Below are positions 1 to 32,962 of a stretch of DNA of 60,896 bases, in pieces; position 1 is the first letter of the stretch, and each line of letters begins with the position of its first letter. The position numbers were made by a program, and so were the translations under genes. The notes below the pieces were generated by a model. The model ran no database searches, had not been told where the DNA came from, and saw only the letters and a program-made list of their open reading frames with translations. This DNA is from a virus (Duplodnaviria; Caudoviricetes): positions 1-60,896 of IMG/VR virus record IMGVR_UViG_3300049137_000128. The stretch is one strand, 5' to 3'.

Positions 1-57
1 CCATACTCACATCCGATAACGTCCCCCATCTCACGAAACACCATCCCAGGGGGGACC

Positions 58-642
58 ATGCGCCACACCCGCACGACCACACTCGCCGCACTCACCGCCG
101 CCACCCTGCTCGCCCTCACCGCCTGCACCCCGGAAGAAAGCGTCAACACCACACCCAAGGCCGGCACCTCCAAGTCCGCGAAGAAGACCACCGAGGACAA
201 GACCGACGACGCGCCCGCCAAGAAGACAGCGGCCGTCGGCGACACCCTCACCCTCAAGGGGATGGAGAACGGCGAGCAGCTCGATGTCACCCTGAAGAAG
301 TGGCTGCCGACCGCCGAGCCGGGCACGGAGTTCGACATCCCGCAGGACGGGAAGCGGTGGGCGGCCGCGCAGTTCGAGCTGGTGAACACCGGCAGCAAGG
401 TGTACGCCGACTCCCCGCAGAACGGGGCGAAGGCCGCCGACTCACAGGGGCAGCGGTTCGACTCGTGGTTCGGGGAGATCAAAGCCGGTCCGTCGATGTC
501 GTCGGACGTGAGCCTGCCGAACGGCGAGAAGGCGCTGGGGTGGATCGTGTTCGAGGTCCCGAAGGACTCGAAGATCGTGTCCGTGCAGTTCGGCATGAAC
601 TCCGGGTTCTCAGACCAGACCGGGCAGTGGGCCGTGAAGTAG
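58..642 (+). CDS. DUF4352-like lipoprotein (possible superinfection exclusion)
   Basis: Signal peptide with lipobox LTAC, K/T-rich linker, beta-rich domain ending GWIVFEVP..W. Confidence 0.7.
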   Translation: MRHTRTTTLAALTAATLLALTACTPEESVNTTPKAGTSKSAKKTTEDKTDDAPAKKTAAVGDTLTLKGMENGEQLDVTLKKWLPTAEPGTEFDIPQDGKRWAAAQFELVNTGSKVYADSPQNGAKAADSQGQRFDSWFGEIKAGPSMSSDVSLPNGEKALGWIVFEVPKDSKIVSVQFGMNSGFSDQTGQWAVK

Positions 643-652
643 GTTCGGGGCA

Positions 653-679
653 CGGCCCGGCCAACTGATGGCCGGGCCG
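653..679 (+). terminator. GC-rich hairpin after lipoprotein gene
   Basis: CGGCCCGGCCA-actga-TGGCCGGGCCG perfect 11-bp stem. Confidence 0.6.
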
Positions 680-698
680 CTGCTAGAGAGGGGACCTC

Positions 699-1151
699 GT
701 GGGCATCGTCGAATTCCTGCGCGCACGCTACGTCGAAGCCCGCAACGCCGAAGAGGGAAAGCGGCGCATCATCCCAAGCCCGTTCGACGGCCACGACACG
801 GAATTCGTGCGCGACGCAGACGGCACCCGACTCCTCGTCGATGGGCACCCGTACCCGATCGAGGAGTACCAGAAGATCGCGACCGCACCCGCCGCCGATC
901 AGTTCGTGCTTGATGACCTCGACGCCAAGCTCGCCATCGTGGAGACCTACGCCACGACCGCCCGCCTCCGTGACGAAGCCGCTGCCCGCATCAAGGCAGC
1001 GGAGGCGGCGGGTGAGCGCCCCTCTGTGAACGATCTCGATACGTGGAACCGCGCGCAGCGGGAAGCCGGGATCCTGGAGATCCCTGTGCGTCTTCTCGCC
1101 CGTCCGCACCGAGCGAACCCGGACTTCGATGCCGCGTGGCTGGAGGACTGA
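699..1151 (+). CDS. DUF6221-like hypothetical protein
   Basis: IVEFLRAR N-terminus, AKLAIVE, and LLARPH..NPDFDAAW C-terminus typical of the family; purine-rich RBS before GTG. Confidence 0.65.
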   Translation: MGIVEFLRARYVEARNAEEGKRRIIPSPFDGHDTEFVRDADGTRLLVDGHPYPIEEYQKIATAPAADQFVLDDLDAKLAIVETYATTARLRDEAAARIKAAEAAGERPSVNDLDTWNRAQREAGILEIPVRLLARPHRANPDFDAAWLED

Positions 1152-1153
1152 AC

Positions 1154-1192
1154 CCGGAAGATCACCCCCGGGGCGCCTGCAAGACTGGATGC
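1154..1192 (+). promoter_or_regulatory. Late promoter copy 1 (leaderless)
   Basis: CCGGAAGATC at 1154, AAGACT at 1181, ATG at 1193. Confidence 0.6.
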
Positions 1193-1420
1193 ATGAGCGC
1201 CCCGGCTGCCTCGGACGGCACCCACTTCTGGTTCATGTCCCTCTACCTGGCAACGCCCGAAGGCTTCGCCTTCTACCGCCGGACAGGCACCTATACGCCC
1301 AACCCGGGTGGCACACGCACCGCCGCCTTCGAAAAACTCCTCGATCATGTGAAGGAGAAGAGCCCCGAGTTGCAGGGTGCTGTCGTCGTCGCCTTCGATA
1401 TGCAGCCCAACGCACTGTAG
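1193..1420 (+). CDS. Hypothetical protein (75 aa)
   Basis: High-GC3 ORF MSAPAASDG... directly after promoter motif. Confidence 0.65.
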   Translation: MSAPAASDGTHFWFMSLYLATPEGFAFYRRTGTYTPNPGGTRTAAFEKLLDHVKEKSPELQGAVVVAFDMQPNAL

Positions 1421-1423
1421 GCG

Positions 1424-1462
1424 CCGGAAGATCACCGCCGCGCGCCGGGCCACAATCACCCC
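1424..1462 (+). promoter_or_regulatory. Late promoter copy 2 (leaderless)
   Basis: CCGGAAGATC at 1424, CACAAT at 1451, ATG at 1463. Confidence 0.7.
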
Positions 1463-2002
1463 ATGAGCAGCTACCCGGCGCGCTGCCCCGCCCGCAACCT
1501 CAACGGCCGCCCCTGCGCCAACCCCGCCGGACAAGGCACCCGCCACCCAGGCCTAGGCACCTGCATCTGGCACCGAGGCGGACAACAACACGCCGAGGAG
1601 GCATGGGCCATGGCACAAGAACTCGCCGCCGAACGCGACATCACCCCACACGAGGCGTTGCTCAGCCTCGTGCGAACCGCCGCCGCCCGCGCCGCCTGGA
1701 CCGACAACATCATCTTCCAGCAGCTCCGCGACCACGTCGACAACGGCGGCGACCCGCTGAAACCGCCGACCGAACTCGCGCCGTGGCTGAAGCAGTCCCG
1801 CGAAGAACGCAAACTCGCCGCCGCCACCGCCAAGCAAGCCGTCGACGCCGGCGTCATGGCCGCCCTCGAACGCCGCCTCGACCTCGAAGGCGAGTTGGTG
1901 GCGAACGCGCTCGGCGCTGCGCTCGATGCGCTCGACCTGCCGCACGAGCAGCGCGTTGCAGCATTGGAGGCGGCGCAGGGGCGCTTGTTGGAGGCGGGCT
2001 GA
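1463..2002 (+). CDS. Putative terminase small subunit
   Basis: N-terminal C..C..C..H Zn motif (HGGxSTG-like), helical body, position upstream of packaging genes. Confidence 0.55.
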   Translation: MSSYPARCPARNLNGRPCANPAGQGTRHPGLGTCIWHRGGQQHAEEAWAMAQELAAERDITPHEALLSLVRTAAARAAWTDNIIFQQLRDHVDNGGDPLKPPTELAPWLKQSREERKLAAATAKQAVDAGVMAALERRLDLEGELVANALGAALDALDLPHEQRVAALEAAQGRLLEAG

Positions 2003-2057
2003 CGGTACCTCCGGGAAAATGGAGACCCAAGTTCCGGTCTGGTCAAAGGAGACCCCC

Positions 2058-2369
2058 GTGATAAAGGTCTGCACCACCCTCGAATCCGGCGCCGAAGTCT
2101 GCACCACCATCGACCTCGCCCACGACGCCGCATCCCGCGCCTACACCACCACCCTCGGCAACGGCAACGACGCCAGCTTCACCATCGGCCACAACCTCGA
2201 CAGCCTCGACGTACTGCCCGTCGTCCGCGACGTCGCCACCGGCGCCCTCACCGTCGCCACCCCCACCGTGACCGCCGTGGACGCCAACAGCGTCCGCCTG
2301 GACTTCCCCGCCGCGCCCACCGCAGGGCAGTTCCAGGTGACGCTCCTCGCCGTCACCCCGTCCGTCTGA
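2058..2369 (+). CDS. Small Thr-rich beta protein, possible virion decoration
   Basis: AAGGAG RBS then GTG at 2058; FTIGHNL..DV....RD....TAVDANSVRLDF pattern. Confidence 0.6.
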   Translation: MIKVCTTLESGAEVCTTIDLAHDAASRAYTTTLGNGNDASFTIGHNLDSLDVLPVVRDVATGALTVATPTVTAVDANSVRLDFPAAPTAGQFQVTLLAVTPSV

Positions 2370-2390
2370 CAGGGGCAGCACCCTCCGCGC

Positions 2391-2422
2391 GGGGCGGCAG
2401 TCTCCTCCTCGGCTGCCGCCCC
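2391..2422 (+). terminator. Hairpin
   Basis: GGGGCGGCAG / CTGCCGCCCC 10-bp stem. Confidence 0.5.
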
Positions 2423-2432
2423 CCGCCGGCGC

Positions 2433-2472
2433 CCGGAATGATCACCCGGAGGTCGCTGGCACCCTGCCGCGC
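2433..2472 (+). promoter_or_regulatory. Late promoter copy 3 (leaderless), upstream of sugar cassette
   Basis: CCGGAATGATC at 2433, CACCCT at 2460, ATG at 2473. Confidence 0.7.
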
Positions 2473-3486
2473 ATGCGCATCCTCCTCACCGGCGCGGCGG
2501 GGTTCGTCGGCTCCCACGTCCTCGCCCACCTCCTCGCCCACACCGACGCCCACATCGTCTGCCCGTGGACGCTCCGCCACCACGGCAACAGCCAACGCCT
2601 CGCCGCCGCCATCGACCAGGCGCCCGAGCCCGGCGCCTGGAACAACCGCGTCACAACCGTCATGCACGACCTCGCCACCCCGATGCCGGCCACGCTCGTC
2701 GACGAGATCGGGCCCGTCGACTACGTGCTGAACATTGCCTCCGAGTCCCACGTCGACCGCTCCATCTCCGAGCCGGCGGCGTTCATCCGGAACAACGTCG
2801 AGCTGGCGTTGAACATCCTCGACTACGCCCGGCAGGTGCGGCCGCGGATGGTGCTGCACATGGGCACCGATGAGGAGTACGGACCCGCGTACGGGGACTA
2901 CAAGCACCGCGAGTGGGACACCGTCCTCCCCTCCAACCCGTACAGCGCGTCGAAGGCGGCGCAGTCCGCGATCGCTACCTCCTACTGGCGGACGTACGGC
3001 GTTCCGGTCGTACTGACGCGGACGATGAACCTGATCGCTCCGGGCCAGGACGCGGAAAAGTTCGTGCCCACCGTGATCCGGAAGATCCTCGCCGGGGAGA
3101 CAGTCCAGATCCACGCCAGCCCCGAAGGAATCCCCGGTTCCCGGCACTGGATCGACGCGCGGGAGTTCGGCGCGGCGTGGCTGCACCTGCTGAACACGGT
3201 CGAGCCGGAGATGTACCCCGAGTACGACCGGCCCAGCATGTTCCACGTCGTCGGCGAGGAACGCTCCAACCTGCACATCGCGCAGACCATCGCGGACATC
3301 CTCGGCAAGCCGCTGCACTACGAGCTGGTCTCCTTCCACTCCAGCCGGCCAGGCCACGACCTGAGGTATGCGCTGGACGGGTCGAAGCTCGCGGAGGCGG
3401 GGTGGACGCCGGGTCGTCCGTTGGAGGAGACGCTGACGGACATCGTGAAGTGGTACACGGACCACCCGGCTTGGCTCGCCGCGTGA
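2473..3486 (+). CDS. rmlB: dTDP-glucose 4,6-dehydratase-like extended SDR
   Basis: TGAAGFVG, ASESHVDRSI, TDEEYG, YSASK, RPGHDLRYALD motifs. Confidence 0.85.
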   Translation: MRILLTGAAGFVGSHVLAHLLAHTDAHIVCPWTLRHHGNSQRLAAAIDQAPEPGAWNNRVTTVMHDLATPMPATLVDEIGPVDYVLNIASESHVDRSISEPAAFIRNNVELALNILDYARQVRPRMVLHMGTDEEYGPAYGDYKHREWDTVLPSNPYSASKAAQSAIATSYWRTYGVPVVLTRTMNLIAPGQDAEKFVPTVIRKILAGETVQIHASPEGIPGSRHWIDAREFGAAWLHLLNTVEPEMYPEYDRPSMFHVVGEERSNLHIAQTIADILGKPLHYELVSFHSSRPGHDLRYALDGSKLAEAGWTPGRPLEETLTDIVKWYTDHPAWLAA

Positions 3487-3713
3487 GCTCGGCCACGCCC
3501 AACCGCGGCGCTTCCGGGCAGAACGCTCTCCAGGCCCTTTCGGCAGCCGAGACCGAACTGAAAGTGATGCCCGGTGGGAACATCGGCACGGACGTGATGA
3601 TGGCGCACTCGGCCAAGGCCCAAGTCTTCGCCACCGCCGCCATCGTCCACGCGCTCCTGGAGATCGGCGACGTGCTGCGCGCGGCCGTTGCCGAGAGCGG
3701 GGACGCACCGTGA
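3483..3713 (+). CDS. Hypothetical protein
   Basis: GTGA overlaps with both neighbours. Confidence 0.55.
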   Translation: MSSATPNRGASGQNALQALSAAETELKVMPGGNIGTDVMMAHSAKAQVFATAAIVHALLEIGDVLRAAVAESGDAP

Positions 3714-4387
3714 GCACACCGTTCCGAGCCGCTGTGATCCCGACCCGCAACCGGCATGACCTGCTCGCCGACTGCATCAACAGCGTGGTGGACCAAGTCG
3801 ACCGGGTCATCGTCATCGACAACCTCTCGGATCCCCCGATCGAGCCGGAGCCGTGGGACGGCAAGGTCGGCGTCGCCGCACTGCCGATCGACCCACCCAA
3901 CATCAGCACCCTCTGGAACGTCGGACTCGCGCTCGCCGACGCGTCCGCCCGCCGGGCCGGTGCTGAGGCGTGGGACATCGCCGTCCTCAACTCCGACGTC
4001 GTCCTCCCCACCGGCTGGATCGGCGCCCTGTCGGTCGCGATGCGTTCCACCACCGCGGTCCTCGCCTACCCCGACCAGCATGGCGGCCAGCAGCAGATCC
4101 TCCACACGAAATCCGGGCCCGTCGACTTGCGAACAAGGCTTACCGGATACGCATTTCTGATGCGGGGCGAAAAAGCCTTGAGATTCGATGAGTCAATGGC
4201 CTGGTGGTATTCTGACGATGACATTTTCTGGAGAGGCGCCGAAATGGGAGGCGCTCTCCTTGTCCCGGGTTTGGCAGTTGATCATCGCTGCCCAAATGGG
4301 TCCATGTACGAACGCCCTGAACTCCAGGTGCAGGCAGGACTCGACCGGGAAACGTTCATCGCGAAATGGGGGCGACCGCCATGGTGA
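3710..4387 (+). CDS. Glycosyltransferase family 2
   Basis: VIPTRNR, VIVIDNLS, VLNSDV (DxD-like), WWYSDDD. Confidence 0.85.
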   Translation: MSTPFRAAVIPTRNRHDLLADCINSVVDQVDRVIVIDNLSDPPIEPEPWDGKVGVAALPIDPPNISTLWNVGLALADASARRAGAEAWDIAVLNSDVVLPTGWIGALSVAMRSTTAVLAYPDQHGGQQQILHTKSGPVDLRTRLTGYAFLMRGEKALRFDESMAWWYSDDDIFWRGAEMGGALLVPGLAVDHRCPNGSMYERPELQVQAGLDRETFIAKWGRPPW

Positions 4388-4950
4388 TTCGTTGCGCCGA
4401 GGAAGACTGCGAAAAGAAGGCGCGCACGCGAGGGCTGTGCAATGCACACTACGAATACGGGCGCCGTCGTGGGCAGTTTGACGGAGTCCTCAGCCCCAAG
4501 CAAGACGTAGAGAGGCGGTACCAGTCCAAGGTAGATCGGAGCGGTGGACCCGACGCCTGCCATCCATGGACTGCATCGGTCAACGAGCACGGCTATGGGA
4601 ACTTCCGTGCCGATGGCCGAATGAACCTTGCCCACCGATGGGCCTACGCAAAATTCGTCGCGCCGTTGCGTGATGAGGAAGTAGTCCGCCATTCCTGCGA
4701 CAACCCTCCGTGCCAGAACCTGCGGCACCTGCTCCCGGGCTCAATGAAGGACAACGTCCGCGACATGTTCGAGCGCGGTCGCTCTTACGACCGGAGGGGC
4801 GTCGGTAACTCGCGGGCGAAGCTCACGGAAAAGGAGGTCCTGGAAATCAGGTCCAGCCGTGAAGCGACAACGGTGCTGGCAGAACGCTACGGCGTCTCGA
4901 CGCAACTCATCAGCACGATCAAGCTGCGCCAGACGTGGTCGCACCTATGA
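4381..4950 (+). mobile_element. Free-standing HNH homing endonuclease
   Basis: C..C..GLC..HY N-terminus, AHRWAY..VRHSCDNPPCQN..HL..G...DN core, C-terminal AKLTE..V.EIR HTH; atypical codon usage. Confidence 0.85.
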
Positions 4951-4960
4951 GAGGAATCTC

Positions 4961-5776
4961 GTGAAGATCGCAATCACCGGGGGCAACGGCTTCCTCGGCC
5001 AAGCCGCCCTCGCCGCCGCCGAGAAAGCCGGGCACGCCGCATGGTCCTTCGACCGGGCACACGGCGACGACATCCTCGGCTCCCTCGACGGCCTCCACGA
5101 AGCCGACACCGTCATCCACCTCGCCGGGATGCTCGGCACCAGCGAACTGTTCGACGCCCCCGAAGGCGCCGTCCACGCCAACGTCATCGGCACCCTCCGC
5201 ATCCTGCGCTGGTGCCACGACAACAACGCCGCCTACGTCGGCATCGGCATGCCCGACGCGTTCCCGTCGGTGTACACGGCGACGAAGATGTGCGCCGCCC
5301 GCCTCGCCACCGCCTGGCACAAGGCCTACGGGCTCCGCGTCGCCCACGTCCGCGCGTTCAATGCCTACGGCGCCGGCCAGAAGTACGGGCCTGGGCACCC
5401 GCAGAAGATCCTCCCCACGTTCGCCCGCGCCGCGTGGTCTGGTCAGCCGTTGCCGGTGTGGGGTGACGGCGAGCAGACGATGGACCTGGTGCACGCCGAC
5501 GACGTGGGCCGCATGCTCGTCGACGCCGCAACTCATGGGGACGACGTCACGTTCGACGCCGGCACCGGTGTAGCGGTCACGGTGAACGAGTTCGCTCAGA
5601 TGGTGCTGGACATCACCGGGTCTCGGGCCGGGGTGGAGCATCTGCCGATGCGGACGGGCGAGACGCCGACGCGGATTGTCGCGGAGGGCGATGGCTGGGA
5701 CCGCCTGGATTGGAAGCCGGAACACGATTGGGCGCGCGTGGCGCAGGCGGTGGAGTGGTATCGGTCCACGGTATGA
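4961..5776 (+). CDS. NAD-dependent sugar epimerase/dehydratase
   Basis: TGGNGFLG, HLAG, YTATK, RAFNAYG, GDGEQTMDLVH; GAGGA RBS before GTG. Confidence 0.85.
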   Translation: MKIAITGGNGFLGQAALAAAEKAGHAAWSFDRAHGDDILGSLDGLHEADTVIHLAGMLGTSELFDAPEGAVHANVIGTLRILRWCHDNNAAYVGIGMPDAFPSVYTATKMCAARLATAWHKAYGLRVAHVRAFNAYGAGQKYGPGHPQKILPTFARAAWSGQPLPVWGDGEQTMDLVHADDVGRMLVDAATHGDDVTFDAGTGVAVTVNEFAQMVLDITGSRAGVEHLPMRTGETPTRIVAEGDGWDRLDWKPEHDWARVAQAVEWYRSTV

Positions 5777-6438
5777 GCGACATTGCGCTGATCACCGCGA
5801 TCTACGACTCGTACGACGAGCTGAAGCCGACGATGCCACAGCGCGGCGTGAGTGTGGACTGGGTTCTCGTCACCGACGACGAGACCCTCAAGGACGAGAC
5901 CACCGTGCGGGGCTGGCGGGTGGTGTACGAGCCGCGCCCGGGCGTTCATCCGAACCGGGCGGCGAAGCATCCGAAGTACGAGCCGTGGAAGTACACCGAC
6001 GCTGAGGCTTCGGTGTGGGTGGATGCGTCGTTCCGGATCGTGTCCGAGAAGCTCGCCGTGGAGGCTCTGTCGTTCGCGGATCCGATTGCCCAGTTCGCGC
6101 ACCCGTGGCGGGACTGCCTGTACGCGGAGGCCAAGGAGTCGGCGGGGCTGGCGAAGTACGACGGCGAGCCGGTGCTGACGCAGGCCGAGTGCTATCGGGA
6201 GTCCGGGCATCCGGAGGGGTGGGGGTTGTGGGCGACGGGGTTCATTGCCCGTCAGCACACGGAGTCGGTGCGGGCGCTTGGTGAGTTGTGGCTGGAGGAG
6301 ACGTACCGCTGGTCGTTTCAGGATCAGATCTCTCAGCCGTATGCCCTGCGGAAGGTGGGGCTTCGTCCGGCGGTACTGCCGGGGAATCATCTGGCCACGC
6401 CGTGGCTGGCTTATGAGGGGAGCGCGAGACACGGATGA
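5773..6438 (+). CDS. DUF616 (TOD1/MUCI70-like) glycosyltransferase
   Basis: TAIYDSYD, VTDD, SVWVDAS, HPWRDCLYAE, QDQIS.PY. Confidence 0.75.
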   Translation: MSDIALITAIYDSYDELKPTMPQRGVSVDWVLVTDDETLKDETTVRGWRVVYEPRPGVHPNRAAKHPKYEPWKYTDAEASVWVDASFRIVSEKLAVEALSFADPIAQFAHPWRDCLYAEAKESAGLAKYDGEPVLTQAECYRESGHPEGWGLWATGFIARQHTESVRALGELWLEETYRWSFQDQISQPYALRKVGLRPAVLPGNHLATPWLAYEGSARHG

Positions 6439-6875
6439 CGAGCATTGAGATAGGTGGCGGCCACCTCGTCCAGGCCGGGTGGACGAACCTCGACCCGACC
6501 CACGGCGTCGGCGACTGGAAGCGTCCCGCGCAGGTCGTACCGTGGCCTGCTGCGGACGGCAGCGTGCAGGCGATCCGCGCCTCGCACGTGATGGAGCACA
6601 TCCCGGCCGGGCAGCCCCGCATCGATGTGATGAACGAGGCGCACCGTGTCCTCAAGCCGGGCGGCGTGTTCGAGATCCGCGTGCCGAACGCGCTCAGCGG
6701 GACGTGGCACGCGTTCGCCGACCCGACGCACGTCAGCTTCTGGTGCCTGGCGTCGTTCCACTACTTCGACGGCAGCTTCGCGGCGAACGCCGACTACGGG
6801 ATCCGGTACTGGACCACGCACGAGCTGCTGATCCAGGGCGACAACGAAATCCTCTGGAAGGGCACACCGCGATGA
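6435..6875 (+). CDS. Class I SAM-dependent methyltransferase
   Basis: IEIGGG, ASHVMEHI, EAHRVLKPGG, DPTH. Confidence 0.8.
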   Translation: MTSIEIGGGHLVQAGWTNLDPTHGVGDWKRPAQVVPWPAADGSVQAIRASHVMEHIPAGQPRIDVMNEAHRVLKPGGVFEIRVPNALSGTWHAFADPTHVSFWCLASFHYFDGSFAANADYGIRYWTTHELLIQGDNEILWKGTPR

Positions 6876-7096
6876 CCGCGCCGGTCGGCTGGGGGCACGG
6901 ATCCTGGGTGCTGCGCGCCAAGCTCCTCGCACTCGGCGTCCCGGAAGACGAGGCGATCAATCTGATGAACGGACACGCGCACGACCTCGCGGAGAGGATC
7001 CGGGATAACGGGCTGCCAGCCAACTACGTCGACACCTTCCAGAACGGCGCCGACTGGGGTGCCGACCTCATCGACCCCGAGGCAGCGGGACCATGA
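6872..7096 (+). CDS. Hypothetical protein
   Basis: ATGA overlaps at both ends; AHDLAERIR..ADLIDP motif. Confidence 0.55.
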   Translation: MTAPVGWGHGSWVLRAKLLALGVPEDEAINLMNGHAHDLAERIRDNGLPANYVDTFQNGADWGADLIDPEAAGP

Positions 7097-7674
7097 AGCC
7101 GGGTGTCACCGTCGTCACGCCCTTTCACGAGCAGCGGCGCGCGAACGGAATGCTGGAGCGCGCCGCCCGCTCCGTCCGCGCCCAGACCGTCCCCGTTGAG
7201 CACATCCTCGCCGAGGACATCCACCACCTCGGCGCAGCCATCACCCGCGCCCACGGCCTCCACCTCGTCCAGACCGAGTGGACCGCGTTCCTCGACTCGG
7301 ACGACGAGCTGGACGCCGACCACATCGAGCAGCTCCTCGCCTGCGCGGCCGACACCGGGGCGGACTACGTGTACCCGTGGTTCCGCGTCGTCGGCGGCAC
7401 CGACCCGTTCCCGATGTTCTACGGCAAGCCCTTCGACCCCGAGTGCCCGAACTCCACCACCATCACGATCCTCGTACGTACCGAACTCGCGAAGCAGGTC
7501 GGGTTCGCCGCCGACCCCACAGTCCAAGTCGCGGGCGAAGACTTCCTCTTCACAAAGGGCTGCATCGCCGCCGGAGCGAAGATCGTTCACCTGCCCCGTA
7601 GGAGCTGGACGTGGCACCACGGATCTCACAACAGCTCTGGCCTCCCCGACAGGGGCGACGCACGCCGTCGCTGA
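7093..7674 (+). CDS. Glycosyltransferase family 2
   Basis: VTVVTP, SVRAQT, AFLDSDD, GEDF. Confidence 0.85.
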   Translation: MKPGVTVVTPFHEQRRANGMLERAARSVRAQTVPVEHILAEDIHHLGAAITRAHGLHLVQTEWTAFLDSDDELDADHIEQLLACAADTGADYVYPWFRVVGGTDPFPMFYGKPFDPECPNSTTITILVRTELAKQVGFAADPTVQVAGEDFLFTKGCIAAGAKIVHLPRRSWTWHHGSHNSSGLPDRGDARRR

Positions 7675-7776
7675 GTGGCGCCCCTATGCGCTTCTCCCCG
7701 GGGGCGCCTACGGGTCAATGGGGCACACACAGCCCTGGCGCACGGGCAGCATACGAGGGAACCACCAGGCGCCGTT

Positions 7777-7815
7777 CCGGAAGCCGACGCCCCCACCACC
7801 GGTGACAATCCGGCC
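7777..7815 (+). promoter_or_regulatory. Late promoter copy 4 (leaderless)
   Basis: CCGGAA at 7777, GACAAT at 7804, ATG at 7816. Confidence 0.65.
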
Positions 7816-9180
7816 ATGGGAACCGACGACCGGGCAACAGTGGCAGCACGCGCCGCCGCCCTCCTCGGCGCCCAACTCAAACCCCGCTGGCAGCCACAAC
7901 CCCACCAAATCCCACCCGACGGCAACTGGACAGGCTGGCTGTTGATGGCCGGACGAGGTGCCGGGAAGTCGAAGGCGTGCGCCGAGTACGTACGCCAGCA
8001 CGTCAACGGACCACCCTGCCTCCCCGGCCCGGTGCCGCACTGGATCGCGATCATCGCCCCGACCCTCGGTGACGGCGTCACCTCCATGTACGAAGGCCCC
8101 GGCGGCATCCGCAACGCCGACCCCGGAGCACGCCTCGTCCAAGCCCCCGGCGGAATGGTCATCCGCTGGCCCAACGGATCCCAGGCGAAGATGTACGGCT
8201 CGCATACGCCCGAGGACGTCGAACGCCTCCGCGCCGGCGGTAACTCGTGCCTCGCCGTGCTGGAAGAGTTCGCGACCTGGCGGTACATGGAACAGACCTA
8301 CGACCAACTCCGGTTCGGCCTCCGCTCCGGCAGCCGCCCGCACTGGATCGCCGCCACCACCCCCAAGCCGCGCCCGCTGCTCAAGCGGATGATCAGCGGC
8401 GACATCCCCGGCATCGTGCACACCCACGCCACGATGTACGACAACCCCCACCTCGAACAGACCGTCAAAGACGCCCTGGAGGACACGTACGCGGGCACCG
8501 ACATTGGTGCGCAGGAACTCCACGGCCGCCTGATCGACGAGGTGTCCGAGGCACTGTGGAAACGGGCCACGCTGGAAGAGACCCGGGTACGGGCCGAGGA
8601 GGTACCGGAGCTCGCCCGAATCTCCGTGGGCGTCGACCCGTCCGGCGGTGCGGGCGAGCAGGGCATCGTCGTCGTCGGCAAGTCCGGCCTGGTGCTCCCC
8701 GGTGACGGTGGCCGGCCGCAGCATCACGGCTACGTCCTCGACGACCGGTCGTGCAAGTTGTCCCCGGACCAGTGGGGCCGTCGGGCGGTGCAGGCCGCGA
8801 TCGACTGGGAAGCCGACGAGTTGACCTGTGAGGTCAACTATGGCGGGGCCATGGCCGTGGCTACGCTGCGCACGGCGGCCGAGGCGCTCGGCGTGGACAT
8901 CCCCATCCGCACGGTCACGGCGACGCGCGGCAAGGTGGTGCGCGCGCAGCCGGTTGCCGCACTCGCAGCGCAGGGCCGCTGGCACATGGCCGGCGTATTC
9001 GAAGAGCTGGAGGACCAGCTCGCCACCTGGTACCCGGAACTCGGCTGGTCGCCGGACCGGCTGGACGCGATGGTGTGGCCAGCCTGGCAGATGAAGCTGG
9101 TGGGGACGGCTCCGCGTGGTCAGGGTTCGTTGGGTGGCGGGTTGGCCAGAACGCAGATCGTTGGCGGGCGTCTACGGTGA
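7816..9180 (+). CDS. Terminase large subunit
   Basis: Walker A GRGAGKS, Walker B VLEE, ATTPKP, nuclease VGVDPS and SPDRLDA. Confidence 0.92.
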   Translation: MGTDDRATVAARAAALLGAQLKPRWQPQPHQIPPDGNWTGWLLMAGRGAGKSKACAEYVRQHVNGPPCLPGPVPHWIAIIAPTLGDGVTSMYEGPGGIRNADPGARLVQAPGGMVIRWPNGSQAKMYGSHTPEDVERLRAGGNSCLAVLEEFATWRYMEQTYDQLRFGLRSGSRPHWIAATTPKPRPLLKRMISGDIPGIVHTHATMYDNPHLEQTVKDALEDTYAGTDIGAQELHGRLIDEVSEALWKRATLEETRVRAEEVPELARISVGVDPSGGAGEQGIVVVGKSGLVLPGDGGRPQHHGYVLDDRSCKLSPDQWGRRAVQAAIDWEADELTCEVNYGGAMAVATLRTAAEALGVDIPIRTVTATRGKVVRAQPVAALAAQGRWHMAGVFEELEDQLATWYPELGWSPDRLDAMVWPAWQMKLVGTAPRGQGSLGGGLARTQIVGGRLR

Positions 9181-9185
9181 CCGGC

Positions 9186-9584
9186 ATGGAGACTTGGCTG
9201 CTGCTGCTCGTGATGTCGCTCGCGGTGTACCGGCTGACGCGGTTGGTGGTGGAGGACGTGTTCCCGCCGGTGCTGTGGCTGCGGGATCGGCTCGCGGGCG
9301 GGTGGCGTCCGCTCACCGAGGTCGAGCGGGGCCAGTTGGCTGCGGGCTCGTTGGCTTGGCCGGTGCAGACCATCGACGGCGAGGACCACCGGTACGTAGT
9401 CCGATGGCGGTGGGTGCCGCAGTGGCTCGCGGACCTGGTGTCGTGTCCGTGGTGTGCGTCGGGCTGGGTGGCGCTCGGTGTGACAGCCGGGGTGTGGGCG
9501 GTGGCGGGTCTGGCGATGCCGGTGCTGGTGTGGCTGGCAGTGTGGGCGCTCGGTGCTGTGCTCGCGGCGCAGGAGTGGGCGTAG
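9186..9584 (+). CDS. DUF1360-like membrane protein
   Basis: YRLTRLVVED..LRD and LVSCPWCASGW motifs, transmembrane segments; alternative GTG start at 9177. Confidence 0.7.
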   Translation: METWLLLLVMSLAVYRLTRLVVEDVFPPVLWLRDRLAGGWRPLTEVERGQLAAGSLAWPVQTIDGEDHRYVVRWRWVPQWLADLVSCPWCASGWVALGVTAGVWAVAGLAMPVLVWLAVWALGAVLAAQEWA

Positions 9585-9593
9585 CATCACGGT

Positions 9594-9761
9594 ATGCCCA
9601 GGATGTACTACGTGAAGAAGCCTCTCGACCCTGCTGTCATAGAAGGACGGCGCAAGCTGAGGGCTTCTGACTTCAACGAGTTCGACGCGATCCGGTGGGA
9701 CTTCAACGAGACGTCTGATGCACGTCCGCTCCGGAGTTGGGGTGGGCGTAGGAGCCCGTAG
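9594..9761 (+). CDS. Possible 55-aa ORF
   Basis: MPRMYYVKKPLDP...; fills the gap, contains GACTTCAACGAG twice; no clear RBS. Confidence 0.3.
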   Translation: MPRMYYVKKPLDPAVIEGRRKLRASDFNEFDAIRWDFNETSDARPLRSWGGRRSP

Positions 9762-9851
9762 CATCAATGGGTGGTGAGAGCGGGACCTGATGGGTTCCGG
9801 GGTGGCAGAGGGCCGTTCGCGATGGGCGTCGCGGACGGCCCTTCCCCTTGC

Positions 9852-9884
9852 CCGGAATGATCTTCGCCGGGCTGCTCCTACCGT
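9852..9884 (+). promoter_or_regulatory. Late promoter copy 5 (portal)
   Basis: CCGGAATGATC at 9852, TACCGT at 9879. Confidence 0.7.
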
Positions 9885-9924
9885 CACCCGCACACCCACC
9901 CCACGGGAGCAGCGGGAGCAGCAG

Positions 9925-11715
9925 ATGGCCTGGTACCACGCCTTCAGCCGACGGCGTCCGCTGCCCACACCCACGCCCCTCCCCACCACTCCCAACGCAA
10001 TCACCGCCGCCGCAGCACCCGTCGCCACCCCCCGCACTGAACTCGTACGCACCCCCGACGCCTGGCAGAACGAAGTCTGGGAGTTCTACGACACCCTCGG
10101 TGAATTCCGGTACGCCGCCGACTGGGAAGCCAACGTTCTCTCCCGTATCCGGCTGTACGCCGCACGCCTTGAACCCGGCGTTGACGAACCCGTACGCGCC
10201 GACGCCGGAACCGCCGTCGACCTCATGACCAAATTCGCTGGGGGCGTCGGCGGACAAGCCCAGATCATGGCCGGACTCGCCACGCAACTCGCCGTCCCTG
10301 GCGAGGGATACCTCATCGTCGAGAACGCCAACGGCATCGAACAATGGGCCGTCCGCTCCATCGACGAAGTCCGCGCAGCACGCGGCAAGTACGAAGTCAT
10401 CGACGAGAACAACCCACGCGGCGGCGACCAATGGCGGCCGCTCGCCGCCGACTCCCTCGCACCGATCCGGGTATGGCGGCCGAACAAGCGGTTCCATCAC
10501 CGTGCCGACAGTGCGGCCCGCGCCGCGCGGGCGACGATGCGGGAACTGGAACTCGTCAACCGGCACATCACGGCCCAGTACCTCAGCCGGTTGGCGTCGG
10601 CTGGGGTGGTCATCTTTCCCGACGAGATCACGTTCCCCGTGCGTGAGGAGTTCGCCGACGCGCCCGATCCGTTCATGGCCGAGTGGATCGAGAACGCGAA
10701 GACCGCGATTTCCACCCCTGGAACTGCGGCCGCCGTGGTGCCCATGCCCATCCGCGTGCCGGGCGAGTACGTCGACAAGATCGCGCACATCGACTTCACG
10801 CTGCGCTCCGACGACAAGATCATTGAGAAGCGGGACAGCTGCATCAAACGCCTCGCCTCCCAGCTCAACGTCCCACCTGAAGTGCTGCTGGGAATGTCCG
10901 ATCTGAACCATTGGAACGCCTGGCTCAGCGACGAAACCAACCTCAAGGTCAACACCGCACCAGACGCCGAACTCATCGCTCAGGCACTCACCACCGGCTA
11001 CCTGCAGCCCCGCCTCAAAGCGTCGAACGTGGAGGACTGGGCGAACTGGGTCGTCTGGTACGACATGAGCGAACTGGCACTCCGCCCGGACCGCAGCGAC
11101 GACGCGATCCAGCTGTACGACCGGCTGGAGATCAACGGTGCCGCGCTCCGACGGGAGACCGGCTTCGACGAGGCCGACAAGCCCACCGCCGAAGAGCTGA
11201 AGGAACAGGGACTGAAGGTCATCATCAAGTCCCTGCCGTCCGGCGGCCCGTCCGCGCTCTCCGAACTCACCGGTAAGAACGTCGACATCACCACCGTCGC
11301 CCCGGCCCCGGTCAGTGATGCGCCTGCGCCCGACATCGAGCCGGAACCCTCATCGGAAGACCGGTCACCGCCGAACCAGGACGCCGCACAGGAAGCCGCC
11401 GCCGCAGCCCGCTCACAGCGGCTGATCCAGCAGTCCCAGGCCATGCACGCCGTGCGCTGGGGTGCCGGCCGGGAGCCCGAGCTGCTGCACCCGGCCCTGT
11501 GCTCCCAACACGCCTATTCGTGCCCGTTCACGCACGCTGCGATGAAGTTGGCGACGTTGCCGCGTCCGGGGACGTCAGGGGTGTATGAGGCGCGGCTGTC
11601 GCCGTTCGGCCAGCTGGTGATCGGCCAGCGCTCGCCCCATCTGGATACGTCTGCGTTTCTCACCACTGCTTCTTCTCCTCGGAGTTCGAATGGCTACGCT
11701 CACGGCCGCCGCTGA
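9925..11715 (+). CDS. Portal protein
   Basis: WQNEVWEFYDTLGEFRY, L.VPGE, RVWRP, NHWNAW; follows terminase; GGAG RBS. Confidence 0.85.
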   Translation: MAWYHAFSRRRPLPTPTPLPTTPNAITAAAAPVATPRTELVRTPDAWQNEVWEFYDTLGEFRYAADWEANVLSRIRLYAARLEPGVDEPVRADAGTAVDLMTKFAGGVGGQAQIMAGLATQLAVPGEGYLIVENANGIEQWAVRSIDEVRAARGKYEVIDENNPRGGDQWRPLAADSLAPIRVWRPNKRFHHRADSAARAARATMRELELVNRHITAQYLSRLASAGVVIFPDEITFPVREEFADAPDPFMAEWIENAKTAISTPGTAAAVVPMPIRVPGEYVDKIAHIDFTLRSDDKIIEKRDSCIKRLASQLNVPPEVLLGMSDLNHWNAWLSDETNLKVNTAPDAELIAQALTTGYLQPRLKASNVEDWANWVVWYDMSELALRPDRSDDAIQLYDRLEINGAALRRETGFDEADKPTAEELKEQGLKVIIKSLPSGGPSALSELTGKNVDITTVAPAPVSDAPAPDIEPEPSSEDRSPPNQDAAQEAAAAARSQRLIQQSQAMHAVRWGAGREPELLHPALCSQHAYSCPFTHAAMKLATLPRPGTSGVYEARLSPFGQLVIGQRSPHLDTSAFLTTASSPRSSNGYAHGRR

Positions 11716-14623
11716 CGGCTCGCACATGCAGGGCGCGATGATCGCGCTGATGCCGACTCCGGAGGATGCGGAGCGGCTGGCGATCGAGGGCGGCGAGGCT
11801 GCCGAGGATCTGCACCTGACGCTGTACTTCCTCGGCGACGACGGCACCGCGTGGACCGAGGACCAGCGCAACGAGCTCATCGGTAACCTCCGTTCGCTCG
11901 CATCCGCCGTGCCTGCCGGGCCTGTTACGGGCTTCGCGTTCGGCGCGAACCACTGGAACCCGAACAGCGACAGCCCATCGTGGGTGTGGGCCGTTGGCGA
12001 CGACCGCGACCGCCCGGAGGGAACCCCGTCGCTGCTCAGCGCGAAAAGCGTTGCCACGGTCGCGCTGGAGACCTCGCACAATCTGCCAGAGCTGCCGGTA
12101 CAGCACTCGCCTTGGGTGCCGCATATCTGTGCCGCGTACTCCGACGAGCTGGACCTCATCATCGCGCTGGAGGAGCGGCTAGGGCCGGTGACCTTCGACC
12201 GGATCAGGGTGGCGTTCGCCGGGGACCACACCGACATCCCCCTCGGCGAGACCGTCACTGCGGCGGCCGGCCCACTGCGTCGCCAGCCCACCGAACTGGA
12301 GATCCGCAGCCGCGTCGACTTCGCGGAGATGGACAAGGCATGGCACGACGCCGTCGACGCCACCGTCGAAGCATGGGCCGACATCCAGACCGCCCAACGC
12401 GAGCAGATCACCGCCGCCGTGCAGGCCGCCGCCGAGGCTGACGACCTCGACCGCCTGAACACTCTCACCGTCGACAGCAGCGACGGCGCCCGGCTCCTCA
12501 TCGCCCGCATGATCGCCTACGCGCGGGAGGCAGGCGAGCAGCAGCAGGCCGAAGCCGAAGCCCAAGGCGTCACCGTCCCCGAATGGTCGCTGGACGACGA
12601 GGCGCTCACCGCCGCAGCGATCCGGGACCGGCTACGCCAGATCGGCCGTACAGCCGCCCGCGTGCTGGGCGTTGGTTTGGTGCAGTCCGCTGTCCGGCAG
12701 GCCATGCGCGTATGGGGCTCCGGCTCGGCGGCGCAGGTGGCCACGCAGGTGGACGAACACCTCGCCTCCCTGTCAGGTGCGGCGGTGGAAGAGCAGGTCG
12801 GGGCGGCGATGACAGCCGCTCAGAACGAAGGCCGCATGGCCGTCCTCGCGGTCGCCCCACCAGCCGAGTATGTGGCCAGCGAAGCGCTCGACAAGAACAG
12901 CTGCAAGCCCTGCCGCGACATCGACGGCACCCGCTACACCACCCTGCCCGACGCCCGCCAGGCCTACCCGACCGGCGGCTACACCGGCTGCCTCGGCGGC
13001 GCGCGCTGCAGGGGCACGCTCGTGACGGTGTGGCCGCAGGCGGACGAGCAGGCAGCAGCCGCCGGAATGATCTTGGCTGCGAACGCGGACACAATGCCGC
13101 CGCAGACCACCGAACTGGAGGACACGATGCCGTATCGCGTCGAGCAGGATCACCCGGACTGCGGCGCCGATACGCCGTGGGCTGTGGTGCAGGAAGACAC
13201 CGACGAACTCATGGGCTGCCACGAAACCGAAGCCGCAGCCCTGGAACAGAAGGCCGCCCTACTCGCCGAAGAGAACGACGAGCCCGGCGACGAGGACATG
13301 GACTACGCGGGCGACACCGCCCCCTGGGAAGGCGTCCTCGCCGTCGAAGGCATCGTCACCGGCGACGGCCGCGAGTTCGCCGAAGGGGCCCTCACCTGGG
13401 CCGACCTCCCCGTCCCGCTGCGCTGGAACATCGAGGACTCTCACGGCGGCGAAGCCCGCACCAAAGCAGTGAACGTCGGCCGCATCGACAAGGTGTGGCG
13501 CGACGGCAGCAAGATCATGGGCGCCGGAGTCCTCGACCTCTCCGACGACAACGGGCGCCGCGCCTACGACAAGATCAAAGGCAAGTTCCTCCGCGGCGTC
13601 AGCATCGACGCCGACTCCATCAGCGACGCCGACGTCGAATTCGTGTGGCCCGAAGACGCCAATGCCGGCACCGAAGGCGACGACGAGGGCGACCTGCTGG
13701 AGATGCTGTTCGCGCAGCCAGAGAAGATGATTTTCCACGGCGGCCGCATCCGCGCCGCCACGTTGGTCGACATCCCCGCGTTCGCCGAGGCCTACATCGC
13801 ACTCCTCGACGAAGTCGGCGCGATCGTGGCCGGCGGCCAGCCCGTCGGTGAGGCAGCGCTCCAGGTGGCGGGGCGGAAGGTGGACGAAGGCGGCACACGT
13901 ACCGCCACTGCACTGCGCACCGTGACCGCTGGCGCCCCAGTCTCTCATCCCGCGATGACTGACCTGTGGAAGCCTCCCGCCGAGTGGTTCAGTGATCCGG
14001 AGTTGCCGTTCTACTGCGGCATCGTCGTCACCGATCAGGGGCGCCTGTACGGGCACGCCGCGCCATGGGGGGCCTGCCACATTGGGTTCGACGGCGAGTG
14101 CGTGACCGTCCCCCGGGAGAACGAGCACTCGCACTACATGACCGGTGAGACGGTTTGTGACGACGGGTCGCGTGTGGCGGTCGGTCAGATCACCGTCGGT
14201 ACGGGGCACGCTCCGCTCCACTTCGGGGCGCAGCCTGCGGCGGAGCACTACGACAACACGGGCACGGCGGTCGCGGATGTCTCGGTCGGCAACGACAAGC
14301 ACGGTATCTGGATCGCGGGTGCGATCCGTCCGAACGCTGACCCCTTGAGTGTGTACGAGCTGCGGGCGTCGGGCCGGGTGTCGGGTGACTGGCGGCGCAT
14401 TGGTGGCCAGCTACGGATGGTTGGGCTGCTCGGCGTGAATGTGGCCGGGTTCCTGGAGGAGGCCAAGATGCGGACGCTGGTCTCGGCCGGGCAGCCTCAG
14501 GCGCTGGTGGCGGCTGGTGTTCCCAAGCAGCGGTGGGCCATGTCGAAGGATGAGATGGAGCGGCAGGCCGTGCGTGTTGTGATGCGGATGCTGTCGCGCC
14601 GCGTGCACCCGGGAAGGAGGTGA
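11690..14623 (+). CDS. 2H phosphoesterase + MuF-like minor head + capsid maturation protease fusion
   Basis: HLTL and PHIC motifs; C..C...DG..Y and C.GG.RCRG MuF-type Cys motif; EGIVTGDGR..P.PL..H..VGRID and GVSID protease-type motifs; SGDWR. Confidence 0.75.
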   Translation: MATLTAAADGSHMQGAMIALMPTPEDAERLAIEGGEAAEDLHLTLYFLGDDGTAWTEDQRNELIGNLRSLASAVPAGPVTGFAFGANHWNPNSDSPSWVWAVGDDRDRPEGTPSLLSAKSVATVALETSHNLPELPVQHSPWVPHICAAYSDELDLIIALEERLGPVTFDRIRVAFAGDHTDIPLGETVTAAAGPLRRQPTELEIRSRVDFAEMDKAWHDAVDATVEAWADIQTAQREQITAAVQAAAEADDLDRLNTLTVDSSDGARLLIARMIAYAREAGEQQQAEAEAQGVTVPEWSLDDEALTAAAIRDRLRQIGRTAARVLGVGLVQSAVRQAMRVWGSGSAAQVATQVDEHLASLSGAAVEEQVGAAMTAAQNEGRMAVLAVAPPAEYVASEALDKNSCKPCRDIDGTRYTTLPDARQAYPTGGYTGCLGGARCRGTLVTVWPQADEQAAAAGMILAANADTMPPQTTELEDTMPYRVEQDHPDCGADTPWAVVQEDTDELMGCHETEAAALEQKAALLAEENDEPGDEDMDYAGDTAPWEGVLAVEGIVTGDGREFAEGALTWADLPVPLRWNIEDSHGGEARTKAVNVGRIDKVWRDGSKIMGAGVLDLSDDNGRRAYDKIKGKFLRGVSIDADSISDADVEFVWPEDANAGTEGDDEGDLLEMLFAQPEKMIFHGGRIRAATLVDIPAFAEAYIALLDEVGAIVAGGQPVGEAALQVAGRKVDEGGTRTATALRTVTAGAPVSHPAMTDLWKPPAEWFSDPELPFYCGIVVTDQGRLYGHAAPWGACHIGFDGECVTVPRENEHSHYMTGETVCDDGSRVAVGQITVGTGHAPLHFGAQPAAEHYDNTGTAVADVSVGNDKHGIWIAGAIRPNADPLSVYELRASGRVSGDWRRIGGQLRMVGLLGVNVAGFLEEAKMRTLVSAGQPQALVAAGVPKQRWAMSKDEMERQAVRVVMRMLSRRVHPGRR
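13062..13126 (+). promoter_or_regulatory. Late promoter copy 6, internal to fusion gene, with RBS
   Basis: CCGGAATGATC at 13062, CACAAT at 13090, GGAGG then in-frame ATG at 13127. Confidence 0.6.
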
Positions 14624-14692: not shown

Positions 14693-14818
14693 CCAGTTAG
14701 TTTAAGCGGTCCGGTGAACTATTTGACGTTTGCCGGACCGTGTGCTATCAGCTAACCTCGCTGCGAATAGGCGCCAAATATGACGGGCGCACACCCCCTC
14801 TTCGCAACGGAGGACCAC

Positions 14819-19950: not shown

Positions 19951-20403
19951 ATGACCCAGCCCATTCCCACCCCAGCCGCGCCGGTCAAGGACTTCAGCCG
20001 CAAACGCGAACGGCTGACCTTCCGCATCGACGACGACGTTTTTGAGGCCGCCACCGCCCTCCCGGGCAAGACCCTCGCACGGTTCGCCACCCGCTTCACC
20101 GACATCGAGAAGACACCCTTCGACAAGCAACTCGACGTCTTCGCCGACGCGCTGGCCATGGTCCTCCTTCCCGAGTCCAACAGCCGCTTCCAGAAACGCC
20201 TCGACGACCTAGAGAACCCCATCGAGCTGGAGCAGGCGTCCGACGTCATCACCTGGCTGCTGGAGCACTACGGGCTCCGCCCTACCGAGCCGTCCTCGGA
20301 CTCGTCCACTGGGCCTGCCAGCCCGGCATCTGGCACGAGCTCGACGGACGCGCAGCCGCAGCAGGCGTCGATCCCGGCGACCTTCCAGCCGACCGGTTCC
20401 TGA
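19951..20403 (+). CDS. Tail assembly chaperone (G)
   Basis: Upstream of tape measure; WLLEHYGLRPT followed by low-complexity tail. Confidence 0.7.
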   Translation: MTQPIPTPAAPVKDFSRKRERLTFRIDDDVFEAATALPGKTLARFATRFTDIEKTPFDKQLDVFADALAMVLLPESNSRFQKRLDDLENPIELEQASDVITWLLEHYGLRPTEPSSDSSTGPASPASGTSSTDAQPQQASIPATFQPTGS

Positions 20404-32951: not shown

Positions 32952-32962
32952 GGCGTCGCCGT

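Follow-up and report, generated by a model that had tools for sequence, protein, structure and literature searches.

A conserved glycan-tailoring cassette next to the large terminase gene of temperate Streptomyces phages: a candidate virion glycosylation system

The DNA analysed here, called the window throughout, is the linear IMG/VR virus record IMGVR_UViG_3300049137_000128 of 60,896 bp, with a completeness of 69% (CheckV). Directly upstream of its gene for the large terminase subunit (TerL) lies a cassette of genes for two sugar-tailoring enzymes, three glycosyltransferases (GTs) and a methyltransferase (MT), to which a further GT gene at the end of the late operon can be added (Table 1). 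The protein sequences support a module for the tailoring, transfer and methylation of a glycan with four intact GT-like proteins. The cassette is preceded by the same class of promoter-like motif as the portal and tail genes, and it is kept at its site before TerL in related phages and prophages. We consider it most likely, with a probability of about one half, that it is a cytoplasmic glycan-building module that O-glycosylates the phage's own virion proteins before their assembly.

Genes were delimited by GC3 frame plots in combination with stop-to-stop open reading frames (ORFs). A first-pass annotation had listed in this region an RmlB-like dehydratase, a second short-chain dehydrogenase/reductase (SDR), two family 2 GTs (GT2), a DUF616-like GT and a methyltransferase. 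All of these were found in place on the + strand; an insertion carrying an HNH gene, and separately two small ORFs, had been missed. The product of the first gene, SDR1, aligns end to end with the dTDP-glucose 4,6-dehydratase of E. coli (1bxk; E 6.5e-39, residues 2-334). The motifs by which extended SDR enzymes are known are GxxGxxG, the catalytic TDE and YxxxK, and the GAAGFVG, MGTDEEYG and YSASK segments of SDR1 are in register with 1bxk. Because its score of 201.4 bits against the RmlB equivalog TIGR01181 is under the cut-off of 365.1 bits, SDR1 is termed 4,6-dehydratase-like with no nucleotide specificity assigned. The shorter SDR2 retains GxxGxxG and a YTATK sequence; the loop that usually bears the catalytic Ser/Thr is compressed, and a Ser/Thr is not evident in it. 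Its best relatives in the PDB are mostly 4-epimerases (6pmh, E 5.8e-18; MoeE5, E 2.2e-17), followed by dehydratases and reductases. SDR2 may be either an epimerase or a reductase, which its sequence does not differentiate.

Of the GTs, GT2b is encoded by the most conserved gene of the cassette. The match of the TOD1-like GT to PF04765 spans profile positions 73-290 of 314. This protein falls in mostly viral atlas clusters, 79-98% of whose members carry PF04765, and weak relatives of it occur in Cellulophaga phages and cyanophages. The GT-B enzyme that the first-pass annotation had placed behind the holin gene was borne out by its AlphaFold2 (AF2) model (pLDDT 83.4, pTM 0.81), which has the two-Rossmann GT-B fold. 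Its top Foldseek matches are GT4 enzymes, among them 7qsg, MshA, BshA and PimA (E 5.7e-11 to 1e-8, TM-score 0.6-0.68), with 7qsg on top (E 5.7e-11, TM-score 0.68) and a sequence identity among the GT4 matches of 12-17%. Against PF13524 it scored 22 bits, under the 25-bit cut-off. Searches of PDB sequences with GT-B, GT2b, the TOD1-like GT and the methyltransferase gave nothing significant (best E 0.06). A transmembrane-grade hydrophobic segment was found in none of the cassette proteins: the sole KD19 value of at least 1.6 belongs to the Rossmann beta1 strand of SDR1, with the holin (1.90) and g16 (2.26) as controls.

The first-pass annotation had called the cassette self-contained and had supposed that the phage makes its own nucleoside diphosphate (NDP) sugars. 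No match to NTP_transferase (PF00483) or RmlC (PF00908) was present in the window, and both families were matched in control genomes. Sugar activation must therefore come from the host. Thus "self-contained" does not hold, and of the making of NDP-sugars only their tailoring stands; even SDR1 is missing in 4/10 and 5/19 of the related loci described below. The cassette is accordingly predicted to tailor NDP-sugars whose activation must depend on the host.

Table 1. Features of the cassette, its flanks and other genes of the window
Feature	Position	Strand	Evidence and remarks
g4, 179 aa, putative small terminase by position	1463-2002	+	N-terminal Cys/His knuckle and helical coiled coil
g5, 116 aa, accessory	2019-2369	+	phrog_2647, phrog_2824, E about 1e-8; domain known from C-termini of head-decoration/virion structural proteins
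GC-rich hairpin 3' of g5, terminator-like	2391-2422	+	10-bp core stem GGGGCGGCAG/CTGCCGCCCC; without U tract
Promoter-like motif copy 2	1425-1462	+	CCGGAAGATCAC ... CCACAAT, 6 nt to ATG; upstream of g4
Promoter-like motif copy 3	2434-2472	+	CCGGAATGATCAC ... GCACCCT, 7 nt to ATG; upstream of SDR1
SDR1, RmlB-like NDP-hexose 4,6-dehydratase	2473-3486	+	PF01370 E 1.7e-40; motifs GxxGxxG, TDE, YSASK
Small ORF, 76 aa	3483-3713 (alternative start 3564)	+	GC3 frame plot; kept in L012, L035, L042, L043; no family match
GT2a, GT-A family 2 glycosyltransferase	3710-4387	+	PF00535 E 2.9e-6, 27.8 bits (cut-off 23.3); LNSD, YSDDD motifs
HNH homing endonuclease, free-standing	4366/4380-4950	+	phrog_6254 E 5.9e-24
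SDR2, short extended-SDR epimerase/reductase, 271 aa	4961-5776	+	PF01370 E 4.5e-32
TOD1/MUCI70 (DUF616)-like glycosyltransferase	5773-6438	+	PF04765 E 3.8e-10, 40 bits (cut-off 21.4); phrog_26101
Class I S-adenosylmethionine (SAM)-dependent methyltransferase, compact, 146 aa	6435-6875	+	PF13489; PF08241 26.6 bits (cut-off 21.2); phrog_6636 E 9e-11; EIGGG motif
orf74	6872-7096	+	Sequence poorly conserved; similar-sized spacer in relatives
GT2b, GT-A family 2 glycosyltransferase	7093-7674	+	PF00535 38.4 bits (cut-off 23.3); phrog_14775 E 7e-42; DSDDE, GEDF motifs
TerL	7675-9180	+	Directly after GT2b; true start possibly ATG 7813; without own promoter motif
GT4-type GT-B glycosyltransferase	31361-32410	+	phrog_7162 E 1.3e-29; AF2 and Foldseek; final gene of late operon
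WhiB-like genes	32550-32972 (-) and 51540-51854
Integrase	39318-40697	-	PHROG/Pfam scan; marks temperate phage

The genes of the cassette had been described as tightly coupled, and this was confirmed by four consecutive ATGA start/stop overlaps at 5773, 6435, 6872 and 7093, whereafter GT2b abuts the TerL ORF. They had also been placed behind copy 3 of a late promoter. The repeated + strand motif is real and its third copy indeed starts at 2434. It is bipartite and consists of CCGGAA(G/TG)ATC followed after about 16 nt by CTACCGT, CCACAAT or GCACCCT in the intergenic regions listed. Nine copies of the first half, counted as CGGAA(G/TG)ATC, were found on the + strand and none on the - strand, where chance predicts a mean of 0.95 and a maximum of 4 (200 second-order Markov simulations). 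The second half, a -10-like element, is present in 7/9 copies (1155, 1425, 2434, 9853, 13063, 19912 and 27774). These full copies precede ORF 1193, g4, SDR1, the portal gene, an internal site in the gene for a 977-aa protein (g18) and two tail-region genes. The word "late" would follow from this choice of downstream genes. The other two copies (3079 and 55736) are half-sites within coding sequence that have no second half.

In four copies, those of g4 and SDR1 included, an ATG is found 6-7 nt past the second element. This suggests leaderless transcripts, also for the SDR1 mRNA; such transcripts are common in Streptomyces. The same motif was observed upstream of g4 in 9/10 sequences scanned and upstream of SDR1 in all seven that have this gene. 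A copy between GT2b and TerL was found neither in the window nor in 9 relatives, so that TerL would be reachable only by transcription through the cassette. This supports co-transcription of the cassette with TerL from a promoter class that it shares with portal and tail genes. Among 24 sequencing runs listed, none recorded as RNA contained this DNA. When a 20-mer taken from this promoter was searched with up to 3 mismatches, it matched itself only, and a sigma-70 consensus scan of positions 1-10000 gave 0 promoters. Besides, at 13063-13120 the motif is followed by GGAGG inside the head-assembly gene (11690-14623), an arrangement that is conserved in relatives; a nested product, either a protease or a scaffold, may be expressed from an internal promoter at this place.

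The window has a G+C content of 63-72% (2-kb windows), and its gene content, as determined by PHROG and Pfam scans, is that of a temperate siphovirus of an actinobacterium. Besides TerL, the structural and late genes encode a portal, a 977-aa head-assembly protein, a 598-aa capsid protein, a tail-tube-like protein, a tape measure, an endolysin and a holin. An integrase, two WhiB-like genes, RecE/RecT-like genes and several HNH genes are also present, and the lysogeny region is situated at 32.5-40.7 kb. A megablast of positions 1-12000 against a phage collection gave no match. Close relatives of the cassette are present as prophages in Streptomyces caniscabiei and in one Streptomyces sp. genome, and the 120 best GT2b homologues include named proteins that come from six or more Streptomyces genomes. 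These matches identify Streptomyces as the host genus. At E <= 1e-5 a total of 541 cluster representatives match GT2b, and Streptomyces genomes and contigs of 66-79 kb account for many of these.

A survey of the cassette in related phages, which the first-pass annotation had suggested, was carried out with two queries. The search with GT2b yielded 8 viral loci and 2 prophages, and all ten have the order g4, GT2a, SDR2, TOD1-like, MT, GT2b, TerL; SDR1 is present in 6/10. The search with TerL yielded 26 viral loci, 5 of which are on contigs already found via GT2b. At least 6 kb of sequence upstream of TerL was available in 22 loci, and in 19 of these TOD1-MT-GT2b stands directly before TerL. Among these 19 (presence defined as a tblastn match with at least 40% identity and at least 50% coverage), SDR2 was found in 18, GT2a in 18 and SDR1 in 14. 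Temperate phages and prophages of Streptomyces that keep the cassette at this site form a large family. The distant GT4-type gene was present in 9/10 relatives tested, the exception being record G011, which is 49% complete, and wherever it was mapped (9/9 loci) it closes the series of late genes and faces a WhiB-like gene.

Within this fixed order the module is mosaic, since the sequences of SDR1 fall into two classes (about 76-92% and about 53-57% identity) and those of TOD1 and GT2b into two classes each. The three loci that lack the cassette at the site (L047, L048 and L049) are the most distant relatives. In L047, SDR1 is the only cassette gene at the site, next to RPF-like and papain-like genes (6214-8077). 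The slot between g4 and TerL carries an RPF-like transglycosylase with LysM in L047 and L048, and NlpC/P60 with LysM in L048 and L049 (7394-8047). Two candidate DNA-hypermodification genes, one for a P-loop nucleotide kinase 3 and one for a Tet/JBP dioxygenase, are present in addition in L048 (record G011; 4821-6286). G012 and G013, the records to which L047 and L049 belong, have GT/MT genes elsewhere, on the strand opposite to that of the late operon and with no promoter motif nearby.

Homologues of several cassette proteins were also encountered in the Streptomyces phages KimJongPhill and Zuko (Zukovirus). These have an epimerase (gp4), a methyltransferase (gp5) and a GT (gp6) before the terminase, and a GT (gp107), an MT (gp108) and a GT (gp109) at the right end. 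In KimJongPhill, gp4 is 50% identical to SDR1, gp109 58% to GT2a, gp107 57% to GT2b and gp6 29% to GT-B. The likeness is thus one of true homologues in phages of the same host genus, with gp4-gp6 just upstream of the gene that precedes TerL. In contrast to the cassette, this toolkit is split between the genome ends with gp107-110 on the other strand, and BLASTP found no homologue of SDR2 or of the TOD1-like GT. The backbone is unrelated as well: the capsid and tail genes differ and TerL is not among the close matches. The sugar genes of these phages are known from annotation, and a literature search, which covered the publications in part, gave no functional study. Homologues of GT2b (40%) and GT-B (36%) also occur, about 3 kb apart, in Arthrobacter phages of about 194 kb, Atuin among them.

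The variation among the relatives is relevant to the possibility that the module remodels the host envelope. Soluble GTs would then act at the cytoplasmic face on lipid-linked or polymer precursors, for example wall teichoic-type glycopolymers or precursors of O-mannosylated glycoproteins. The Streptomyces surface would be altered either in lysogens, which would result in superinfection exclusion, or late in infection, when progeny would be kept from re-adsorbing to debris. The phage is temperate and its relatives are prophages in Streptomyces genomes, and a cassette in which SDR1 can be absent or of two classes, like the two classes of TOD1 and GT2b, is typical of surface-glycan loci. The wall hydrolases in the g4-TerL slot of the distant relatives imply that this slot holds envelope-directed cargo, and the GT/MT genes of G012, G013 and KimJongPhill that lie outside the late operon would fit as well. 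Wall teichoic acid is known to be glycosylated by TarP, a soluble GT-A enzyme of a Staphylococcus aureus prophage; the match of GT2b to TarP is not significant (E 0.77). However, with neither a motif nor a gap between GT2b and TerL the cassette is wired to the packaging genes and not to the lysogeny region, and the conserved GT4-type gene sits past the lysis genes in the late operon. Moreover, a flippase, a membrane GT or an initiating polyprenyl-phosphate transferase gave no Pfam match, and the membrane components of Gtr-type lysogenic-conversion glycosylation were not found either (no transmembrane-grade segment, no Pfam match). Remodelling of the envelope is therefore considered unlikely, albeit a serious alternative.

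The position next to the terminase gene raises the question of DNA hypermodification, in which the GTs would glycosylate a modified base before packaging and the methyltransferase and SDRs would diversify the sugar. Passages on phage DNA-glycosylation clusters describe GT-A/GT-B enzymes, sometimes together with epimerases and secondary GTs and in some cases near terminase genes (10.1101/2023.12.21.572611; PMC13326640). GT2b has an R...DxDD...EDF arrangement as in phage GT-A DNA glycosyltransferases, among whose neighbours epimerases and terminases are mentioned (10.1101/2023.12.21.572611), but this arrangement is generic to GT2 enzymes. The window encodes a C5-cytosine methylase (50351-51124; PF00145 E 8.7e-35), and the distant relative G011 has its Tet/JBP and P-loop kinase genes upstream of TerL. 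G011 (49% complete), however, is the sole relative with a TET enzyme and shows no GT2 and no cassette. As far as these passages describe them, the known routes need a base that is hydroxylated via a 5mYOX/TET or a thymidylate-synthase homologue (10.1101/2023.12.21.572611; PMC13326640). This defining enzyme was not found with the cassette: Tet_JBP (PF12851) was present in 0/4 cassette-carrying relatives rated 100% complete and was not among the 34 proteins scanned of the window (69% complete), and ThyS (PF00303) was present in 0/5 records, the window included. In addition, the best structural matches of GT-B are GT4 enzymes, and the T4 beta-glucosyltransferase is not among the matches listed. 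DNA, which the first-pass annotation had already disfavoured as the target, is highly improbable.

Alternatively, the enzymes could make a non-virion product in the cytoplasm, either a free or lipid-bound methylated oligosaccharide or a glycosylated host protein or small molecule, by which host physiology would be altered. All enzymes being soluble would agree with this. Also, the top fold match of GT-B, 7qsg, is a mycobacterial mannosyltransferase that makes a cytoplasmic methylated polysaccharide (the methylmannose polysaccharide), and the GT4 relatives MshA and BshA glycosylate small molecules. At the low identities involved, however, Foldseek likeness among GT4 enzymes says little on the acceptor, and the fixed linkage of the cassette to packaging and structural genes would be left unexplained. 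No phage precedent for such a product is known to us, and this explanation is regarded as improbable.

Glycosylation of virion proteins is the favoured function. For this the host would provide an NDP-hexose, probably dTDP-glucose, which SDR1 would turn into an NDP-4-keto-6-deoxyhexose. SDR2 would then reduce or epimerise an NDP-sugar; in relatives without SDR1 it would act on an intermediate of the host. A short glycan would be started and extended by GT2a, the TOD1-like GT, GT2b and the GT4-type GT-B, which are all predicted to be soluble, and the small methyltransferase would O-methylate one of its sugars. As all cassette proteins appear to be soluble and a flippase- or polyprenyl-phosphate transferase-like protein is missing from the set, the acceptor must be reachable in the cytoplasm. 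The tail-tube-like protein (17511-18188) offers a candidate in its conserved C-terminal tail, which is rich in Thr and Pro and reads WNVTT.APPT.AC.PT in every aligned sequence of both alignments made. Another late protein, g25 (19951-20403), which is encoded at the position of a tail-assembly chaperone, has a Ser/Thr/Pro-rich C-terminal half and ends with TGS.

The best precedent for the cassette is found in the glycosylation of actinophage virions. Freeman et al. (2023) are said to have found O-linked glycans at the C-termini of capsid and tail-tube subunits of phage particles, and putative GTs were reportedly noted in some Gordonia and Streptomyces phages. According to passages that cite the work on the cluster F phage Che8, its phage-encoded GTs attach glycans to major capsid proteins (PMC11256854). 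Che8 resembles the window in having phage-encoded GTs in a temperate actinophage, but its GT genes (gp108-gp110) are located at the right genome end and have no methyltransferase or SDR genes there. In the cluster O mycobacteriophage Corndog, gp35-gp38 are described as an O-methyltransferase and three GTs between the genes for the portal and the protease (PMC4351075). The likeness lies in a methyltransferase and several soluble GTs within the virion/packaging operon of an actinobacteriophage. In the stretch examined, Corndog in contrast lacks genes for an NDP-sugar dehydratase or an SDR, and its genes are between portal and protease where those of the window precede TerL. It is also a lytic phage that infects Mycobacterium, whereas the window is from a temperate phage of Streptomyces. 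Finally, chloroviruses and Megavirinae are described, in excerpts from two papers, as encoding nucleotide-sugar tailoring enzymes and GTs that glycosylate their own particles (PMC10117803, PMC7826918); as these are eukaryotic viruses with unrelated genomes, the likeness is one of description, without sequence comparison.

A number of observations weigh against virion glycosylation. No cassette protein is significantly similar in sequence to the Corndog proteins. The only match to Che8 gp108-110 or Corndog gp35-38 is that of GT2b to gp108 over 59 aa with 29% identity, a generic GT2 match (E 2.5e-5; BLASTP, 19-protein database), and apart from one chance-level match of orf74 there were no others to the Che8 and Corndog enzymes at E <= 1. 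The capsid and tail proteins of Che8 and Corndog end with GS, GS, GS and DS, and from these four C-termini a Gly/Asp-Ser signature was derived. The capsid protein of the window (14780-16576) ends with GTVRV and the tail-tube-like protein with PTTLAA, which leaves g25 as the sole late-operon protein with a Che8-like end. Nor does the capsid protein have an added tail, because the alignment of its C-terminus with the capsid proteins of other actinophages extends to residue 590-596 of 598. For the Thr/Pro-rich tail a cassette-less control is lacking, as all relatives with enough sequence have GT genes; a cassette-free close relative was not found among them, G012 and G013 carrying such genes elsewhere and G011 being 49% complete. 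The argument from location is weakened because in G012, G013 and partly in KimJongPhill the GT/MT genes do not belong to the late operon and are on the other strand, and the Che8 GTs are also at a genome end. Lastly, since the phage is temperate, a phenotype of the lysogen is conceivable.

Judged by its predicted proteins, the cassette is set apart from the Che8 and Corndog systems by non-homologous enzymes, by genes for NDP-sugar tailoring, by its fixed site before TerL, by its own promoter class and by the absence of the Che8-type acceptor signature. A more far-reaching proposal, to be regarded as tentative and rather doubtful as a whole, is that of an independently evolved virion-glycosylation system, not homologous to that of the mycobacteriophages and widespread among temperate Streptomyces phages of soil. 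By this system a methylated glycan with a 6-deoxyhexose would be attached to sites rich in Thr and Pro, for instance at the C-terminus of the tail tube, and the swappable parts of the system would give rise to particle "glycotypes".

The cassette had been placed between the terminase subunits. TerL indeed follows directly, while the upstream gene, g4, is a putative small terminase by position only. It received no TerS label in Pfam or PHROGs, no tblastn match in the phage database and no PDB profile match, and Foldseek gave nothing at E <= 0.001. In relatives g4 is kept directly upstream of the cassette. The g4 of L011 has a different, helix-turn-helix (HTH)-like N-terminus on the same C-terminal helices and resembles KimJongPhill gp7 (E 6e-9), the product of the gene immediately before TerL in that phage. 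The accessory gene g5 is variable and was found in few loci (L011/L034, L027/L041 and L040). The segment with the hairpin behind it (2370-2432) folds with -40.1 kcal/mol (z -3.1), and 0/200 shuffles were as stable.

The HNH gene is part of a 574-nt insertion (4388-4961) exactly in the spacer between GT2a and SDR2, where prophage L012 has 9 nt. A match to it at this junction was not present in the relatives L004-L013, and both GT2a and SDR2 are intact despite the insertion. Other cassette junctions of the relatives have variable gaps of 200-800 nt, and in L004 an HNH-like match lies between GT2b and TerL (8241-8357). The TerL match itself is interrupted in L010 (10754-12826), L012 (10748-12805) and L037, the first and last of which share a contig. 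About 810 nt separate query residues ~104 and 102, which suggests that the terminase has an intein or that a mobile gene was inserted there. Between TerL and portal a small protein with a strongly hydrophobic C-terminus is encoded (9177-9584; KD19 2.26, phrog_781) that is kept in all relatives.

Some further features of the window were recorded. In the tail region, the tandem paralogous minor-tail genes 28173-28697 and 28731-29261 contain repeat pairs of 159 nt (77% identical) and 100 nt (73%), and the gene for a 647-aa tail protein has an internal duplication at 24329-25127 with a spacing of 585 nt. On the lysogeny side, 36644-37402 (- strand) encodes a GntR-family regulator with a UTRA effector domain (E 8e-17 and 2.6e-15), which may be a small-molecule-responsive switch. 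The gene for the C5-cytosine methylase directly precedes another HNH/HTH gene (51121-51543). A Phd/YefM-type antitoxin-like gene (52872-53153; E 1e-7) stands alone on the minus strand among early genes, and the product of 54563-56014 is a ParB N-terminal-like domain fused to DUF5131 (phage Gp37/Gp68 family, E 6.8e-34, with a weak radical-SAM signal).

To our knowledge, the glycosylation of phage particles has so far been demonstrated only in a few mycobacteriophages, where it is discussed with regard to recognition by antibodies. In the family described here, which is common, a bigger toolkit (a deoxysugar dehydratase, a second SDR, four GTs and a methyltransferase) is fixed in the packaging operon. 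Were this toolkit to act on the host wall, it would represent late-expressed remodelling of the Streptomyces surface of a new kind. If its target is the virion, particle glycosylation would be ordinary in soil actinophages and would have a role unrelated to animal immunity. Should the tentative proposal of an independent virion-glycosylation system be true, its purpose could not be the evasion of such immunity; it might be protection against soil proteases or control of adsorption on hyphae and debris. The absence or class of SDR1 and the classes of TOD1 and GT2b would then give related phages different glycotypes, and with the virion as target the polymorphism of the cassette would offer a natural series that links glycan structure to phage ecology.

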